Shown one piece after another: positions 2,317-46,981 of a stretch of DNA of 51,705 nucleotides. Position 1 is the stretch's first letter. Each line of letters starts with the position of its first letter. Origin of the DNA: a virus (Duplodnaviria; Caudoviricetes). Where the stretch lies: positions 1-51,705 of the IMG/VR virus record IMGVR_UViG_3300048834_000253; one strand, written 5' to 3'. Both the position numbers and the translations under genes were made by a program. The notes under the pieces were generated by a model that saw only the letters and a list, made by a program, of their open reading frames with translations, was not told the DNA's origin and made no database searches.

Positions 2317-4155
2317 TTAGATCACCTCCACGATTGTGATTTTTCCGTCAGCGCCGTCGCCGCCCTTGCCTGCGGGGAAGCCGTTGATGTTGCCCGTGCC
2401 ACCGTCGCCGCCGTCGCCGGGGTTGACGCCGTTGGCGCCTGCCGTGCCCACTACCACGCCGGTTGCGCCGCCGCTTCGCCCGCCGCGCTGGCCACCCAGC
2501 AGGGCTTGAATGCCGGTTGCACTGGCGTCGCTGCCTGCACGGCCATTCGGACCGCCCCACTCCGTATTTGTAACGACACTAATACCTGACCCTCTGAGCT
2601 GCCCTGCTGCATTGCCAGCGGGTGCGGCGTCTTTTCCTCCGCCGAGTGGGCCGTCGCCGTGCGAAGAACTGGAGCCGCCGTTGCCGGTGTGCACACCCCC
2701 GGCTGCAGAGCGCAGCGCGCCGATGCTTGATGCGCCGCCAGACGTCCCCGCCCCGATGGTCTTGTTTGCGGGGGAGTTATCTACCGATGCAGCAGCACCA
2801 CCCGTGCCTTTCGCGCCCACGGTGCACGTCACCGACGCCCCCACCGTGACCTCGGCAAGTGCAATGCTGGTTTTCCAGCGCTCGCCCGCACCACCCCCGC
2901 CGCCGTTGTAGCGTGCTGCTGCACGGGCGCCACCACCGCCGCCCGCGCCCCCAGCAATCAGGTCGGCATCCCACTGCTGGATGCCCGGCGCCCATACGTA
3001 GCTGCCCGTGGTCGTGAAGGTCTTGGTGCCACCAACAAGTGGAATGGAATAGAGCGCGGCGCCGTCGCACAGCACGAGCCGGACGGCGCCGGGGTACAAC
3101 ACAAAGTTCGCAAGCCCGTCAATCGTCTCGGCGCTGTTCGGGTCGAGCGTAATGTCACCCGTGTCATAGTTGCGCACGTAGCACCACCAGCCGTTACCCA
3201 GCGTGGCGGCTGCAGTGAGTCCAAGCGTCCATGTGCCGCTGCAGTCGATGAGTGCGCCTTTGTCCGTGCCGACAAGCGTGTATGCGCTGGTTTTTGTGGC
3301 TCGGGCCATGCTGCCCGGTGCGGCTTCCGAAGTCCACTCCACCCCTGTCTCATTGCTCTTGACGCGCAGGTTTTTAAGTGCCTGACCAGCCAGCGCCGGT
3401 ATATCAGCCCCCAAATCCTCCACCCACGATGCGTCTTTTCTCGCGTATGCTTTTCCATCGCTGGGCGCCTCTGGCACAGGCCCGCCAGCAATGGACGCAG
3501 CGCTCGCCGCAGCCTCTGCCGCTTTTGTCGTTGCGATGCCAGCCTGCGTCGTTGCGATGCCAGCCTGCGTCGTTGCGATGCCAGCTTGCGTGGTGGCTAC
3601 GCCAGCTTGCGTTGTGGCCGTAGAGGCTTGCGCCGCAGCAACGCCAGCCTGCGTTGTGGCCGTTCCGGCCTGCGTGGTGGCGACCCCTGCTTGAGTCGTG
3701 GCCGTTGTTGCCGCATTCTGCGCAGCCGTATTTGCCACCTCCACATCCTCCACATTGATGGCCAACTGCACCCGGCCTGCGGAAATGTCGGTGGCCAGCA
3801 CGCCAGAGGTGTGCCCCGCGATGACGGAATAGATGTTCTTGCTGACCGGATCGCGGAAGTAGTCACTGATGACGTAGGCGGTGGCGGTCAGCCAATCGCC
3901 TCTATACCGTCCGTAAGAGATTGCCGTGATGTTGCCTGACGCATTGAAGGCCAGCACCAGATTGGCCCGGGCGCCCGCGTCCATGGCCAAGGTCTGATCT
4001 GCCGTGCCTACCGGGAGTTTGATGGCCCGGTCTGCATCGCCCTGCACTTCATCAAAGCCAGCTTCTACGCGGGCGAACTCGTCTTTGAGCACCTGGGACG
4101 AAACCCGCTGTTCTGGGAGGGGGTTATAGGCGCGCGTGTAAAAATCGTTGGGCAT
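2317..4155 (-). CDS. Tail fibre protein (Gly-rich C-terminus)
   Basis: N-terminal attachment region, ATTQAG heptad stalk, EAPSDGKAYARKD motif and Gly-rich distal domain. Confidence 0.85.
   Translation of the reverse strand: MPNDFYTRAYNPLPEQRVSSQVLKDEFARVEAGFDEVQGDADRAIKLPVGTADQTLAMDAGARANLVLAFNASGNITAISYGRYRGDWLTATAYVISDYFRDPVSKNIYSVIAGHTSGVLATDISAGRVQLAINVEDVEVANTAAQNAATTATTQAGVATTQAGTATTQAGVAAAQASTATTQAGVATTQAGIATTQAGIATTQAGIATTKAAEAAASAASIAGGPVPEAPSDGKAYARKDASWVEDLGADIPALAGQALKNLRVKSNETGVEWTSEAAPGSMARATKTSAYTLVGTDKGALIDCSGTWTLGLTAAATLGNGWWCYVRNYDTGDITLDPNSAETIDGLANFVLYPGAVRLVLCDGAALYSIPLVGGTKTFTTTGSYVWAPGIQQWDADLIAGGAGGGGGARAAARYNGGGGGAGERWKTSIALAEVTVGASVTCTVGAKGTGGAAASVDNSPANKTIGAGTSGGASSIGALRSAAGGVHTGNGGSSSSHGDGPLGGGKDAAPAGNAAGQLRGSGISVVTNTEWGGPNGRAGSDASATGIQALLGGQRGGRSGGATGVVVGTAGANGVNPGDGGDGGTGNINGFPAGKGGDGADGKITIVEVI
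3526..3710 (-). repeat. About 8 tandem 21-bp units encoding ATTQAG(I/V/T)
   Basis: Visible repeat gcgtcgttgcgatgccagcct and its translation. Confidence 0.9.
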
Positions 4156-36198: not shown

Positions 36199-36230
36199 CT
36201 GTTCGCCCTTCAATGCCCAAAAAAAAGAAA

Positions 36231-36284
36231 CCATCGGCAGGCAGGCGGGCGTGTCCTGCTTTTCGGGAGCTACCCTAGCCGTGG
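36231..36284 (-). ncRNA. Candidate three-way-junction cis-RNA upstream of rep
   Basis: CCA-CGGC/GCCG-A-TGG closing stem, GGG-TAGCT-CCC, GAAAA, GCAGG/CCTGC, then a U-rich tract. Confidence 0.5.
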
Positions 36285-36293
36285 CGTCAAAAC

Positions 36294-37183: not shown

Positions 37184-37795
37184 ATGAGCATCCACAAATT
37201 GATCAGACAGGGCCGCGAGCGCCTCGGGTTGACCGAGGAAGCATTCGGAAAACTTTTCGGAGTGAGCCGTGGCGCGGTGCAGCAATGGGAGCGGGAGGGG
37301 GGGACGGCCCCACGGCGCAAGATTCAGCCCCTAGTCGCTCAAGCTTTAGGCATTTCTGTTGCACAGCTCATGGGTGGCGGCGCAGACACTGCGGATGGCC
37401 CGGATATAGGAGGTGTTGTGCCGCTTTTAACGTCAGTACAGGCTGGGGATTTCAAAGAATTTGTGGATAACTTCCACCCAGGGGACGGGGCCATGGAGTC
37501 CATACCGACATCAGTGCCCGTCAACCGCCACACTTTCGCGCTCCGGGTAGCTGGTGACAGCATGGAGCCTGAGTTTCACGCTGGGATGATCCTCATCATT
37601 GAGCCGGAAATGGAGCCAAACCCCGGAGATTTCGTCGTGGCGCGCAATGGCGACAACGAAACTACGTTCAAGCAACTGATTCAAGATGGCGCAGACTGGT
37701 ATCTGAAGCCCTTGAATGACCGCTACCCAATCAAACCACTTGGGAAGTCATCAATCATTGGGGTGCTGCGCGCAGTAGAGAAGCGCTACCGCTAA
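37184..37795 (+). CDS. cI: CI-like repressor (HTH-XRE plus S24 peptidase)
   Basis: GVSRGAVQQWE HTH, VQAG cleavage site, GDSM and TFKQL catalytic Ser/Lys. Confidence 0.95.
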   Translation: MSIHKLIRQGRERLGLTEEAFGKLFGVSRGAVQQWEREGGTAPRRKIQPLVAQALGISVAQLMGGGADTADGPDIGGVVPLLTSVQAGDFKEFVDNFHPGDGAMESIPTSVPVNRHTFALRVAGDSMEPEFHAGMILIIEPEMEPNPGDFVVARNGDNETTFKQLIQDGADWYLKPLNDRYPIKPLGKSSIIGVLRAVEKRYR

Positions 37796-37815
37796 ACCAA
37801 CCAAATTCAACAATC

Positions 37816-37840
37816 GGCCACCTTCGGGTGGCTTTTTTTT
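37816..37840 (+). terminator. cI terminator
   Basis: GCCACC-TTCG-GGTGGC followed by T8. Confidence 0.9.
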
Positions 37841-37873
37841 CGTCTGTACGGGTAACTACTTACAACATTCTTA

Positions 37874-37913
37874 GATAGTTTTTCTTGCTTTGCTAGTTTT
37901 TCTATCGCATAAT
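37874..37913 (+). promoter_or_regulatory. OL operators and PL-like early promoter
   Basis: TTGCTT-17-CATAAT overlapped by GATAGTTTTTCTTG and GCTAGTTTTTCTATC. Confidence 0.8.
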
Positions 37914-37996
37914 TCACTCACGCCAACAAAACGGCGCGGGTGACAAGCCATCGAGCAGGCCACCGACAGGAACCTTAAAAATCTTTTTCCTGCGGA

Positions 37997-38283
37997 TCAG
38001 TTGTTGCACTTTACGCAACAACTGACAGCCCTTGATTGGGTAGTGGGCGCGGACACCGGGCGTGAGACGGTGATTGAGGCGATGCCAGCCAACAACAGCA
38101 AGGGCATCAAGACAGCGAGCGTCCCGCGTGGGGTAGCGCTTGAGTCGAGAAGCTGGAGCCGGTGCATACCGGGAGACGCCAGCAGCAGCACACACCAAGG
38201 CGAAGCGCCATGGTTTGAAAGGACGTGCTGCAAACACCTTCGCAGAGGGTGCAAACAGAAGGCGAACAAGCCTTCTGTTTGCG
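37997..38283 (+). ncRNA. Highly structured early leader, unit A
   Basis: Serial hairpins at 37997-38025, 38152-38183 and a 13-bp stem before the HNH SD; no convincing ORF. Confidence 0.5.
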
Positions 38284-38291
38284 AGGAAAGT

Positions 38292-38786
38292 ATGACGAAA
38301 CACATGACTGCAGAGGTGGCGCGTGAAATCCTAATTTACGAGCCGGAAACAGGTCTGTTCCGCTGGAGAGTGGATCGGGGAAACGGGCATCGTGCCAATG
38401 ATCTGGCTGGAAGGATGAACAGCAATGGGTATTGGGTTGTTGGGTTCAAACAATATCCGCTACTCGCGCATCGTCTTGCCTGGCTGTACATGACCGGCGA
38501 ATGGCCTCCCTTCAATGTTGATCACATAAATGGGGACAGGTGTGACAACCGCTGGGCAAATCTCCGAGACGGCAGCGGCCCCATAAACGCACAGAACGTC
38601 AGGCGAGCGCAAAGAAATAACAACTCATCCGGGCTTCTTGGTGTAACCAAGAGGCAAGGCAGGTGGGAAGCGCAAATCAAGTCGCAAGACGCAAAGAGGT
38701 ATTTAGGCTCTTTCGGATCGCCGGAAGATGCCCATGCCGCCTATGTTGAAGCCAAGCGCAGGCTACATGCTGGATGCACCATCTAA
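38292..38786 (+). CDS. HNH-AP2 homing endonuclease
   Basis: Y.PETG.F.W, AHRLAW, VDHING...DNR..NLR and YLG.F...E.A..AY motifs. Confidence 0.92.
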   Translation: MTKHMTAEVAREILIYEPETGLFRWRVDRGNGHRANDLAGRMNSNGYWVVGFKQYPLLAHRLAWLYMTGEWPPFNVDHINGDRCDNRWANLRDGSGPINAQNVRRAQRNNNSSGLLGVTKRQGRWEAQIKSQDAKRYLGSFGSPEDAHAAYVEAKRRLHAGCTI

Positions 38787-38807
38787 CAAGGCGGGCGCTC
38801 AGGTGGG

Positions 38808-38897
38808 CGCAACAACTGACGGACACGGCACTGATAGAGATCAGCAAAGCACCGGCCAGCGGTGCAGCAGGAACCGGCACAGCCGGAATATGCCTGC
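38808..38897 (+). ncRNA. Structured unit B (partial duplicate of unit A)
   Basis: CGCAACAACTGAC repeat plus a covarying GCAGG..CCGG..CCGG..CCTGC hairpin. Confidence 0.5.
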
Positions 38898-38920
38898 AAG
38901 CCATTCGAGAGAGTGGCAAA

Positions 38921-38956
38921 GCCCATGCGCCAGTCACTGAGGGCGCATGGGTTTTT
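38921..38956 (+). terminator. Intrinsic terminator
   Basis: CCCATGCGCC/GGCGCATGGG stem followed by T5. Confidence 0.75.
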
Positions 38957-38968
38957 CAAGGAGCCAGA

Positions 38969-39181
38969 ATGATCGAAGTCACGAAAGAACGGTTTTTCGC
39001 AACAGTAGGGCTGATGGACGTGCACCCAAGGGCCAACCCTGACCACTCGTCATGGGAGACACGCAGCCGCGAGGTTGTCGGGCGCACCACGCCGGGCTAT
39101 CTGTGCCGCGATGAAATCGGCCAATGGACGAACAAGAGCAGGTACTTCGTGGCCGAGCGCTTCTCCAGGGACAGCCAGTAA
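38969..39181 (+). CDS. Hypothetical protein, 70 aa
   Basis: AAGGAG SD; MIEVTKERFF..DVHP. Confidence 0.7.
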   Translation: MIEVTKERFFATVGLMDVHPRANPDHSSWETRSREVVGRTTPGYLCRDEIGQWTNKSRYFVAERFSRDSQ

Positions 39182-39241
39182 CCCCCCCCGCCCCTACACC
39201 AGGGGCCGGGAGTTCACGCCTCGCCCCACGTAACGTGGCGG

Positions 39242-39762
39242 CCATCACAGAACAGGAATGCGCAGGAGGAGTTATGCGACCAACGAAAGAGCAGATTGCC
39301 GAGCACTTTGACTACATGGCTGGCGCATTGATTCGCAAGACGACGGGAAAGCGCGGGTACGCCAGGCCAGACGGATATGTTTACGTGCGCCTGCATGGCA
39401 GGTCATATGGCGAGCATCGGCTGATCCATTTGCTGTTTACCGGCGAGTGGCCGCACCAAGTTGACCATGCGAATGGCGTTCGTAGTGATAACCGCCATGA
39501 GAACCTGCGTTCGGCCACACACGCTCAAAACTGCATGAATCGCAAACAGATTGGCGTCACAAGCAAAGGGTGCTACTGGCTGCCAAAGCGGCAGAGGTGG
39601 ATGGCTCAGATCGGCAGCGGCGGCAAGCGCAAAACCATTGGCTACTTCAGGACAGAGGCTGAGGCCGCAGCGGCATATGCCATGGCCGCAGAAGCCCTCC
39701 ACGGCCCGTTCAAGCGAACTTCCTAAATGCCGGAGATCAGCACCGGCCCTGTTCTGTGATGG
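39242..39762 (+). ncRNA. Structured RNA cassette copy 1, enclosing an HNH gene
   Basis: Perfect 15-bp inverted repeats at 39242-39256 and 39748-39762; GAATGCGCAGG after the 5' arm; GCCGG-AGATCAGCA-CCGGC before the 3' arm. Confidence 0.65.
39274..39726 (+). CDS. HNH-AP2 homing endonuclease inside the RNA cassette
   Basis: AGGAGG SD; EHRLI, VDHANG...DNR.ENLR..T..QN..N and IGYF.T..EA..AY motifs. Confidence 0.92.
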   Translation: MRPTKEQIAEHFDYMAGALIRKTTGKRGYARPDGYVYVRLHGRSYGEHRLIHLLFTGEWPHQVDHANGVRSDNRHENLRSATHAQNCMNRKQIGVTSKGCYWLPKRQRWMAQIGSGGKRKTIGYFRTEAEAAAAYAMAAEALHGPFKRTS

Positions 39763-39864
39763 TGAATGCCCGGTGGTGATGGGCTATGAGAAAGAGCAGT
39801 GCAACAAGCCGTTCCTGATTTCAGGACTGCACGGCAAGCCGGAGACACACCACCGGCCACCATC
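39758..39864 (+). ncRNA. Structured RNA cassette copy 2 (empty)
   Basis: GATGGTG/CACCATC stem; AAT-GCCC-GGTGGTGAT-GGGC; 53-nt structured insert; GCCGG-AGACACACCA-CCGGC. Confidence 0.65.
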
Positions 39865-39946
39865 TTCAATTCGCCCAGCGCCTCTGCTTCGGTACGCGCT
39901 GGCTATCAACTATCCCCAAATATCTGGCAGCAGATATTCCACAAAC

Positions 39947-39970
39947 AGCCCTGCAATGCGGGGCTTTTTT
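39947..39970 (+). terminator. Intrinsic terminator
   Basis: AGCCCTGC-AAT-GCGGGGCT followed by a T run. Confidence 0.8.
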
Positions 39971-39982
39971 CATGGAGCAACT

Positions 39983-40696
39983 ATGGCCCACAAGCAATCG
40001 TGCACCGAGGAACGATTCCTCAAAGACGCGGCAGCTCACCATATGGAGGTGCTGCGCGATGACGGTGTGAACCGCCATTTGCGATTCAAGAATCCCGAAT
40101 CGAACGCCTACTGGTTCGACATCATCACTTGGCCCGGCACGCTGTGCGTTGACGGCGACATGGGCACCTTCGTGTTCCGGCGCCTGCATGACATGTTCGT
40201 GTTCTTCCGCACGGATCAGGAGCACTACGACCGGACGGGCCGCGCCGACCGGTTGGCGATCAACCCCAGCTACTGGGACGAAAAGCTGCGCGCGCCAGCG
40301 CCACGCGATGCCCAGGAATACTGCGCCGACAGCTTCCGCCAGCATGTCCAAGAGGCTTTCGACAGCTGGAAGGAGAGCAATCAGCCCGACGACGACGAAT
40401 GGACCACCGATGCCGACCGGCGCCAATTTGAAGAGCAGCGGGATGCGCTCTGGGCCGCGCTGAAAGAGGACGTGATGTCGTATGCCGATGACGGCTTGAT
40501 TCGCGCCTACGACGCGGCCCGCGACTTCCGCTGCGATGAGGTGCCGGGGTTCAACCTGGAGGACTGCTGGGAGTGGGACTGCCAGGTGTTCAAGTTCGAT
40601 TTCCTGTGGAACTGCTACGCCATCGCGTGGGGTATCAAGACCTACGACAAGGCGAAGCAGGCGGCGCAAGCAGCTCCGGAACTGCAGCAGGGCTGA
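39983..40696 (+). CDS. Conserved phage protein, 237 aa
   Basis: GGAG SD; RHLRF, FDIITWPG.L...GDMG...F and IN..YW.EKL motifs. Confidence 0.85.
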   Translation: MAHKQSCTEERFLKDAAAHHMEVLRDDGVNRHLRFKNPESNAYWFDIITWPGTLCVDGDMGTFVFRRLHDMFVFFRTDQEHYDRTGRADRLAINPSYWDEKLRAPAPRDAQEYCADSFRQHVQEAFDSWKESNQPDDDEWTTDADRRQFEEQRDALWAALKEDVMSYADDGLIRAYDAARDFRCDEVPGFNLEDCWEWDCQVFKFDFLWNCYAIAWGIKTYDKAKQAAQAAPELQQG

Positions 40697-46464: not shown

Positions 46465-46742
46465 CAACCAAAGGACACGAAATGACAGACCAATTTTCCC
46501 CCGCCGACATGGCAACAGCATCCGCCGATGGATTCCGCGCCAGAGATGCCGAAGTGGCGAAGCTCAAAGGCCAGCGCGCCGTGCTGTGTTCGCTGCTGCG
46601 CGAGTGCCTGCCGGTGATTGATGCGCTGATGCAGATGCCCGGAGACGACGACAGCGACGCACGCTTGAATGGGCTGGCAGGCCGTATCACGGGCGCGCTG
46701 AATGCGCTGGCAGAGGATCAGGTGAAGGGTGGTGAGTCGTGA
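46461..46742 (+). CDS. Hypothetical protein
   Basis: DMATASADGFR motif; coupled ORF. Confidence 0.65.
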   Translation: MTTKGHEMTDQFSPADMATASADGFRARDAEVAKLKGQRAVLCSLLRECLPVIDALMQMPGDDDSDARLNGLAGRITGALNALAEDQVKGGES

Positions 46743-46981
46743 AGCGCAAAGAAATCGACGCCATCAAGACCGAAGTCAACAGACTTCTCCAGCGCATTGA
46801 CGACATGGAGCGATGCGCAGGATGGACACGGTACAGCTCCACACAAAATGCAGCCGGAAATTACGACCATGCAACCAGCAAGCCGCACCCGGAAGACGTC
46901 TTCAACTACGGGAAGTACACCGCAGCGGTCAAGCGCGCAAGCCTTGATTTGAGCAAAGCACTTGTGGAGATTCGGAGATGA
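46739..46981 (+). CDS. Hypothetical protein
   Basis: GTGA/ATGA overlaps. Confidence 0.65.
   Translation: MKRKEIDAIKTEVNRLLQRIDDMERCAGWTRYSSTQNAAGNYDHATSKPHPEDVFNYGKYTAAVKRASLDLSKALVEIRR

Follow-up and report, generated by a model that had tools for sequence, protein, structure and literature searches.

In tRNA (RF00005), the acceptor and T stems are continuous, a D arm follows after a short linker, an anticodon arm comes next, and the elbow is held by contacts of G18 and G19 with the T loop. Engineered tRNA scaffolds are used to stabilise RNAs in bacteria. Purine-riboswitch-type 'tuning fork' aptamers have a closing helix and two hairpins held parallel by a loop-loop interaction. Phage tRNA clusters can also hold small non-tRNA RNA genes of unknown function, such as T4 rnaC (species 1) and rnaD (species 2), which by annotation abut a tRNA gene beside the homing endonuclease gene segB. 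The recognition site of SegB is reported to be the conserved T-stem-loop DNA of tRNA genes, which makes SegB a precedent for nucleases that use conserved RNA-gene motifs (PMC2330249). Here we analyse a 107-nt element at positions 39758-39864 (+ strand) of the phage record IMGVR_UViG_3300048834_000253 (Caudoviricetes), a complete 51.7-kb record with terminal repeats whose 51,705 nucleotides form the window of this study. The element, called copy 2 below, very probably belongs to a conserved family of structured RNAs, one that is widespread in phages and uncatalogued as far as our searches reach. Next to it lies copy 1, by its sequence the same RNA gene, in which a cassette with an HNH-AP2 nuclease gene has replaced the part from the loop of the first hairpin to the base of the second. 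Taken whole, the explanation that we favour, and consider probable, is that copy 2 is a member of this uncatalogued phage family without an open reading frame (ORF) and gives rise to a stable small RNA that mimics tRNA. New here are the loop-loop covariation seen when members are selected on one loop only, the borders of nuclease invasion in three members, and the pair formed by an invaded and an intact copy.

The predicted layout of the family comprises a closing helix (P1), an AAU linker leading to a first hairpin (H1, 4-5 bp), a free-form arm, and a second hairpin (H2, 5 bp) stacked on P1. In copy 2, P1 is a 7-bp helix between GATGGTG (39758-39764) and CACCATC (39858-39864). The family-conserved AAU linker occupies 39765-39767 (consensus GAATGC in alignment A1, see below), and H1 (39768-39784) has the stem GCCCG/UGGGC, with G-U as its fifth pair, and the loop GUGGUGA. 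The variable middle arm (39785-39837) contains a hairpin at 39808-39835 in a constrained fold. H2 (39838-39857) follows a CAA that, together with the stem GCCGG...CCGGC, covers 39835-39857; it has a 10-nt loop, AGACACACCA, and abuts P1 without a linker after 39857.

To judge from the sequence, this is a tRNA layout: an acceptor/T-like stack of 7 + 5 bp, a D-like hairpin, an arm in the anticodon position, and an elbow made by a Watson-Crick loop-loop helix. Across the family, P1 is usually 7-9 bp long and continuous with a 5-bp hairpin, like acceptor and T stems; a short linker and a 4-5 bp hairpin correspond to the D arm; and the two hairpin loops are joined as in an elbow. Some elements also lie within phage tRNA clusters, in the orientation of the tRNAs, and one of these is 6 nt away from a tRNA gene. 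Unlike tRNA, the element builds its elbow from a 5-bp Watson-Crick helix rather than from G18/G19-T-loop contacts, has an H2 loop of 8-10 nt (10 nt in copy 2) that lacks the T-loop consensus, uses AAU as its linker, and carries a middle arm of 27-163 nt with one to four hairpins and no anticodon loop.

The family emerged when viral contigs were scanned for the hairpin-2 motif, which matched at least 119 stretches. The exact 19-mer of copy 1, GCCGGAGATCAGCACCGGC, was present in at least 45 viral stretches (45 of 119 among the matches listed), and most of these, again among the matches listed, have AATGCGCAGGCTGATGCGC 60-200 nt upstream. The motif AATGCGCAGGCTGATGCGC...GCCGGAGATCAGCACCGGC, which the original prediction had ascribed to lambdoid phages, is thus a real one. 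The bases flanking the two motifs pair with each other to form P1, although their sequence differs in nearly every locus; this helix ranges from 6 to 20 bp and mostly measures 7-9. Curation of 72 candidates removed four as false and left 68 members, of which the 52 of at most 150 nt entered alignment A1 and served to build a covariance model, R1, that holds P1, H1 and H2 only. With filters off, R1 matches the window at exactly 39758-39864 on the + strand, over model positions 1-104 of 104, with 64.2 bits and E 6e-16. Other members score 40.8-86.6 bits, and the next-best match in the window, apart from the 3' half of copy 1, reaches 16.2 bits.

Base pairs were counted in 91 R1 matches from 91 sources, 88 of them distinct, and the frequencies that follow refer to these distinct members. 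Paired cells amount to 98.5%, against 81.9% in column shuffles (none of 500 reached the observed value) and 25-47% when partners were slid. Changes on both sides of a pair occur at all seven P1 pairs and all five H1 pairs; the fifth H1 pair, for example, is A-U in 77 members, G-C in eight and G-U in one. H2 was fixed by the first search patterns, and its variants come from loci collected through H1 or by blastn. Where the pattern left it free, the stem appears as GUCGG/CCGAC, GCGGG/CCCGC, GCCUG/CAGGC, GCCAG/CUGGC and GCAGG/CCUGC. The alignment was fitted to P1, H1 and H2, so these counts lean towards the three helices, and the flanking motifs leave little room for sliding. In the model-based alignment, inner P1 and H1 contain 18 G-U and no A-C pairs, which points to the + strand as the folded one. 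The corresponding count in the MAFFT alignment A1, 17 to 16, tells nothing, being distorted by the outermost P1 column and by misaligned rows, and the orientation of neighbouring ORFs is uninformative too, since most calls are ambiguous in these GC-rich contigs. The middle arm, in the 68 members, spans 27-163 nt and one to four predicted hairpins without conserved sequence or shape.

The two hairpin loops of the family pair, by their sequences, through about five Watson-Crick pairs. In the common form, loop 1 is GCUGA and loop 2 is UCAGC. This helix was left out of R1, and the R1 alignment is therefore not fitted to it. We examined the helix by selecting on one loop and reading out the other. 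In the first test, selection was on loop 2 only (a base other than G at the second pair). Most of the 119 stretches obtained were chance matches in coding DNA and about 16 were family members, in which GGUGA faces UCACC (for example in loci L129, L152, L164, L170, L203, L244 and L250 of our collection), GAUGA faces UCAUC (L192, L208) and GUUGA faces UCAAC (L254). In the second test, selection was on loop 1 only. A change from U to C at the middle position was found at 15 loci, 13 of them with a recognisable H2, and the opposite base was G in 12 of the 13, with L266 as the exception; in L273 and L278, no H2 was found within 260-300 nt. When the next position was changed from G to U or A, one of five loci was compensated (L284, GCUUA with UAAGC). 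Across the distinct members (88), pairing in the loop-loop helix reaches 96.5%, and three of its five pairs show two-sided changes. In the model alignment, pair 22-234 is CG in 67 members, GC in 15, AU in two, UA in one and other in two; pair 23-233 is UA in 74, CG in nine, UG in two and other in two; and pair 24-232 is GC in 77, GU in two, UA in one and other in six. Both one-loop selections and this tally show that the loops do not vary independently in the family, the opposite of the outcome that the original prediction had named as its refutation, and the covariation that it had suspected is borne out in the four matched forms GCUGA/UCAGC, GGUGA/UCACC, GAUGA/UCAUC and GUUGA/UCAAC. Its proposal of a kissing-loop fold with a tRNA-like elbow likewise gains support, with two loops joined, P1 and H2 stacked, and H1 set off by a 3-nt linker.

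In copy 2 itself, the complementarity that had been noticed between the loops is present: within loop 1 (GGTGGTGAT, 39772-39780), TGGTG at 39774-39778 can form Watson-Crick pairs throughout with CACCA of loop 2 (39848-39852). These kissing bases are placed by the sequence, a constrained fold and the family register. Four of the five register pairs are kept (39775-39851, 39776-39850, 39777-39849 and 39778-39848), including the G-C flip of the GGUGA/UCACC subfamily; the fifth is A-A, and an extra U-A pair, 39774-39852, lies outside the family register. The closest relative of copy 2, L129, occupies the same place in a related phage and has the same P1 with a perfect 6-bp GGUGAU/AUCACC pairing. 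On this evidence from sequence, copy 2 is a member of the loop-variant subfamily GGUGA/UCACC that has drifted by one step. Short contigs from one RNA-library run match 39835-39864 exactly and have a different sequence upstream, so that the loop variant of copy 2 is not private to this genome.

Taken alone, the loop complementarity of copy 2 is weak, and it gains significance from the family match (E 6e-16) and the register pairs. Five-bp complementarity arises by chance in 3% of random 9- and 10-nt loops and in 14% of composition-matched shuffles. The stretch might then be an ordinary imperfect inverted repeat or long hairpin, with the loop complementarity a part of that hairpin or a coincidence. 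The minimum-energy fold of copy 2 is indeed one long imperfect hairpin on both strands, with z -3.5 on the + strand and -3.1 on the - strand. Yet a full-length R1 match and the covariation of the family contradict this idea, homologues with unrelated middle arms keep two separate hairpins, and relatives such as L129, in which the loop pairing is perfect (6 bp), cannot form the extended rod. We find it scarcely credible.

The original prediction had also called copy 2 an empty cassette interlocked with copy 1. The interlock exists, in that GATGG (39758-39762) is common to the 5' strand of copy 2 P1 and the 3' strand of copy 1 P1, being the first five bases of the one and the last five of the other. 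'Empty', though, is no special state: the ORF-less form is the norm in this family. The occupied state belongs to copy 1, whose P1 strands at 39242-39256 and 39748-39762 (both on the + strand, as are the features below) are an inverted repeat of 15 nt with perfect complementarity. Copy 1 keeps this helix, the AAU linker, the first seven bases of H1 (GCGCAGG; linker and H1 part lie in 39257-39273, the family consensus being AATGCGCAGGCTGATGCGC) and an intact canonical H2 (GCCGGAGATCAGCACCGGC, 39729-39747), to which R1 gives a partial match of 28.2 bits. The H2 loop is the canonical AGAUCAGCA, which has no partner loop in copy 1. From the H1 loop onwards, the rest of H1 is replaced by a ribosome-binding site, GGAGGAG, an ATG and an ORF of 150 amino acids (39274-39726), which stands in place of the middle arm and whose stop codon lies 2 nt 5' of H2. 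The hairpin-2 motifs of copies 1 and 2 (GCCGGAGA...ACCGGC) are the only two matches to GCCGGAGAN{4,9}ACCGGC in the window, where 0.01 would be expected.

The product of the copy 1 ORF matches Pfam HNH_3 (PF13392, E 5.5e-14) and AP2 (PF00847, E 3.4e-07; 30.9 bits, just under the curated cut-off of 33.3), by which it is a predicted HNH-AP2 homing-type endonuclease. Two further loci have a nuclease gene in the corresponding place. In L261, an HNH gene of 68% identity lies within the same 13-bp P1 and flanks that surround ORF-less elements in L107 and L063, and homology to the ORF-less loci stops just after AATG and restarts just before CACCGGC. L056 has a 186-codon ORF with a GIY...YIG signature that begins just after AATGCGCAGGCTGA in the H1 loop and ends at the base of H2. 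Scores of 21.8 bits for Pfam GIY-YIG and 20 bits for SegE, both just below threshold, mark it as a probable GIY-YIG nuclease. Homing-type nucleases of two families are thus among the predicted contents of the element. Contigs assembled from sequencing runs extend this picture. One from an RNA library places the HNH core of the window (39256-39748) between other flanks, which form a stem TGATGGTG/CACCATCA, and one from a DNA run joins 39740 to 39851, leaving a single hairpin 2 and no copy 2 interior. A further contig joint, 39762-39911 in run X1, was not relied on, its shorter side being only 26 letters. Copy 1, L261, L056 and the first two of these contigs together indicate that what lies between the P1 strands can be exchanged as a cassette, and the replacement from H1 loop to H2 base in copy 1 indicates that the conserved ends of the RNA gene also serve as borders of cassette exchange. 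By analogy with known homing systems, the HNH and GIY-YIG nucleases would cut the intact element.

It could be argued from these borders that the element matters as DNA, as a landing pad or homology arm for homing cassettes, with the hairpins as nuclease sites and borders and copy 2 as a relic or a cleavage-resistant allele. Two unrelated types of nuclease do lie at the same borders in copy 1, L261 and L056, the same HNH core occurs between different flanking stems, and mobility would explain the near-identical 19-mers in phages of distant hosts. The H1 of copy 2 moreover differs from the canonical H1 that is interrupted in copy 1, and SegB offers a precedent in its reported recognition of T-stem-loop DNA (PMC2330249). 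A double-stranded recognition site, however, would not yield compensatory changes in P1, H1, H2 and the loop-loop helix together with 18 G-U and no A-C pairs, which need selection on the folded + strand. Only three members bear a nuclease, against 91 ORF-less R1 matches, and the tandem pairs in L121, L164 and L265 have no nuclease gene in their copies or spacers (their flanks were not screened for ORFs). We regard a role as DNA alone as improbable. It does not exclude a role as RNA, since a conserved RNA gene is for that very reason a good homing target.

A second alternative takes copy 2 as a cis-acting 3' structure of the nuclease messenger, either a switch between a closed, silent and an open form through competition for GATGG, or a shield of the 3' end against exonucleases. 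The two closing helices do overlap by 5 nt, and the ribosome-binding site and start codon of copy 1 sit in the H1 remnant just inside the 15-bp helix that joins the gene ends. Copy 2 also has a competing rod-like fold and a terminator-like site on its 3' side. Nearly all members, though, are ORF-less and stand alone in tRNA clusters, late leaders or intergenic gaps, the overlap of P1 strands is not seen in the tandem pairs L121, L164 and L265, and a relative keeps the nuclease core without the copy 2 interior. This makes a cis-acting role very improbable.

The element is found in many settings. By blastn, it occurs in 204 GenBank phage records, with Pseudomonas (58), Klebsiella (57), Escherichia (35), Stenotrophomonas and others as hosts, and the annotation under the match in these records is either none or 'hypothetical protein'. 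Among 5426 complete E. coli genomes, 930 have the 5' half, at 817 chromosomal and 236 plasmid places; in 99 of these genomes the match covers at least 80% of the element, and no annotated feature lies under the E. coli matches among the rows listed. Escherichia phage Bas80 has the element 106 nt 5' of tRNA-Met, on the strand of the tRNA and against the surrounding tail genes. In Klebsiella phage UPM 2146, it lies in an unannotated 3.3-kb stretch before four tRNA genes, and in Pseudomonas phage Shamal between the Q antiterminator and holin genes. An E. coli prophage has it between an XRE repressor-like gene and yfdP, a context like that in the window. A P1-like E. coli plasmid (L265) has two tandem copies between tRNA-Thr and tRNA-Ser, the second of which ends 6 nt before tRNA-Ser. 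Wherever a tRNA gene was found within about 2.2 kb, the tRNA genes listed shared the strand of the element (six of six loci: L005, L070, L077, Bas80, UPM 2146 and L265). Tandem pairs also occur at 54-155 and 294-480 of L121 and, on the - strand, at 394-495 and 634-818 of L164. In both, a canonical GCUGA/UCAGC copy comes first and a GGUGA/UCACC copy after a gap of 138 nt, so that the loop types succeed each other as they do in the window. The overlap of P1 strands is not seen in these pairs, whose spacing is about 138 nt (L121, L164) or about 300 nt (L265).

How such an RNA might act can be outlined as follows. It would share a transcript with the genes upstream, one that runs up to the terminator-like site at 39947-39975, and would accumulate as a compact and stable molecule. 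Enzymes of tRNA processing would probably excise it, as they would those relatives that lie in phage tRNA clusters. Its action would rest on its likeness to tRNA in shape, whether as a mimic, a decoy or a processing signal, and the variable arm would be the payload. Our best guess at the function is a stable small RNA that mimics tRNA. The part that concerns tRNA mimicry or tRNA processing specifically is tentative, and we would sooner doubt than assert it.

Several results weigh against the reading of copy 2 as a tRNA-mimicking member of this family. Its loop pairing is shifted and weaker than that of the family, with an A-A mismatch, and its unconstrained fold is predicted as a rod (-43.2 kcal/mol) in which CCGGUGGUG is paired with CACCACCGG. 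The value for the family fold is -39.6 kcal/mol, to which the loop duplex taken alone would add about -6.4, so that the prediction slightly favours the rod over a family fold that lacks the loop pairing. Because the H1 stem contains CCGG, the loop pairing can be extended to a 9-bp rod that competes with both hairpins. Loop compensation in the family has exceptions as well: L213 (C.A), and L156 and L228, which differ at another pair, in the first test; four of the five loci selected for a change at pair 24-232; and further L266 (C.A), L008 and L067 (A.C) and L108. The conservation of some motif parts arises partly by construction, because the collecting patterns fix them. A P1 of 6 to 20 bp is not a strict acceptor stem, and neither ARAGORN nor, in scans of the window region and eight canonical loci, the Rfam tRNA model recognises the element. 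ARAGORN finds no tRNA gene in the window, a tRNA gene lies within 1.2 kb at only a minority of viral loci (three of 36, all co-oriented), and a downstream terminator on the same strand is only weakly enriched (seven of 64 members, three of 64 in a mirror control). No sigma-70-like promoter was found in 37700-40100. The 39740-39851 joint shows that a relative exists without the copy 2 interior, which suggests dispensability. The four sequencing runs, finally, consist of assembled contigs, from which the ends, strand and level of a transcript cannot be read, and neither the presence of contigs in RNA libraries (X4 and X5 from one sample, X17 from another study) nor the parts left uncovered say anything firm about transcription.

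A broader proposal joins the RNA and cassette findings. The family might be a class of mobile RNA genes with a tRNA-shaped scaffold, whose conserved ends would allow the payload, either a structured arm or a nuclease gene, to be swapped by recombination. Nucleases would home into the H1 loop, and copies with re-matched loops, such as copy 2 (GGUG/CACC for GCUGA/UCAGC), would at once escape cleavage and be structurally orthogonal, so that a working copy could sit beside an invaded one in the same transcript without cross-misfolding. We consider this unlikely.

Other described RNAs and DNA elements were compared as well. Rfam 15 has no family over it in the window region, in the eight canonical loci or in L072, and no riboswitch family matched it in the scans of the window region and the eight canonical loci. 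From purine-riboswitch aptamers, it differs by the large variable arm between its hairpins and by the lack of a fixed position relative to a downstream gene. A hit to isrJ (RF01393) in L072, with 30.1 bits against a gathering score of 37, covers only the terminator hairpin after the element. STnc100 (RF02076) gave no Rfam hit in the window region, the canonical loci or L072 at E thresholds of 10, 1 and 10, respectively. The likeness to T4 rnaC and rnaD does not extend to sequence or fold: with filters off, R1 finds nothing over T4 70908-71171, and the best score in the 6-kb region, 8.5 bits, lies elsewhere. An integron attC site was rejected; the ends of the element are GATGGTGAATGC and CCGGCCACCATCTTC, neither an RYYYAAC nor a GTTRRRY core is present, and its conserved inner parts do not repeat each other in inverted form. 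For L046 and L029, the idea of an intron within a tRNA gene was rejected as well, in that ARAGORN finds no tRNA there and the flanks form no acceptor stem. Free-standing homing endonucleases of the SegB type share with the present case a homing-type nuclease gene among structured RNA genes; as a difference, the nuclease gene here lies inside the RNA gene, whose ends are retained and whose middle arm and half of H1 it replaces (PMC2330249). In a full-text literature search, no paper contained the motif strings, and topical literature searches found no description of this RNA. The text of a preprint on Pas small RNAs (10.64898/2026.05.13.724894) has nothing on the motif within the part searched; its supplements lie outside that part, and overlap is possible. 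The searchable supplements of a viral RNA catalogue with 10,006 candidates (PMC10690425) contain no motif match, three further files, not covered, being ones that may hold it.

A structured RNA whose 5' half occurs in about one-sixth of complete E. coli genomes, and which occurs in hundreds of sequenced phages, is thus without a name or an Rfam model. Its fold is now defined well enough to be put to experiment, with four helices and a loop-loop helix backed by natural compensatory mutants. It illustrates how an elbow of Watson-Crick pairs can serve in a tRNA-like shape, and it offers a concrete case of homing endonucleases of two families that parasitise an RNA gene other than tRNA. Should the RNA be a tRNA mimic, it could have implications for the ways in which phages cope with the tRNA-processing enzymes of the host or with defences aimed at tRNA; were it mainly a scaffold, it would parallel in nature the engineered tRNA scaffolds.

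Some members show variations on the theme. In L257, the 5' motif AAATGCGCAG runs directly into hairpin 2, the 3' half of H1 and the middle arm being deleted. The chromosomal prophage L264 (2504-2634) and the plasmid L265 (2508-2638) have elements whose sole displayed difference is a compensatory change in P1 (UGUGGUG/CACCACA and UGUGAUG/CAUCACA). L265 also contains, at 2340-3135, besides its two family copies between tRNA-Thr and tRNA-Ser, repeated ACAACAGGTAAGGG...CCCTTACCGTTGTG modules that enclose T-arm-like hairpins, and this stretch of 600 nt looks like an array of tRNA-like modules. In L046 (1219-1300) and L029 (1200-1120, - strand), the element is followed by two T-arm-like hairpins (gcgggttcgattcccgc, gcggttcgattccgt), which may make it part of a larger composite tRNA-like RNA.

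Within the window, the two copies lie in a run of + strand genes 3' of an S24-peptidase/HTH repressor-like gene (37184-37795), namely a first HNH-AP2 gene (38292-38786), a 70-codon ORF (38969-39181), and the second HNH-AP2 gene, that of copy 1 (39274-39726). The terminator-like hairpin and T run at 39947-39975 (+) follow 83 nt 3' of copy 2, directly before the next ORF, on the same strand, whose ATG is at 39983. Blastn found no relatives of 39100-40100 in the phage collection. The protein encoded downstream is present at 17 viral loci, of which only L129 keeps a homologue of copy 2. The first HNH-AP2 gene is bracketed by an exact 13-bp direct repeat, CGCAACAACTGAC, at 38014-38026 and 38808-38820, and a contig from one RNA-library run jumps across it from 38109 to 38867; this gene, too, looks like an insertion that some relatives lack. 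On its 3' side, AGATCAGCAAAGCACCGGCC at 38841-38860 resembles the loop and 3' stem of hairpin 2 of the family without the 5' stem and may be a decayed third copy; R1 gives no match at 38841-38860. A weak R1 match at 46694-46796 (+, 16.2 bits, E 0.02) contains GAATGCGC, has several non-pairs in H1 and is probably due to chance. Just 5' of the 70-codon ORF, a hairpin at 38918-38960 (14 bp, 93% complementary, 10-nt loop) followed by a T run looks like a terminator, which the terminator scan missed because it allowed loops of 3-8 nt only. Further upstream, on the - strand at 36216-36285, the window has a match to int-alpA, a known small-RNA motif of integrase/AlpA regions, with 53.7 bits (gathering score 35.8) and E 2.4e-09.

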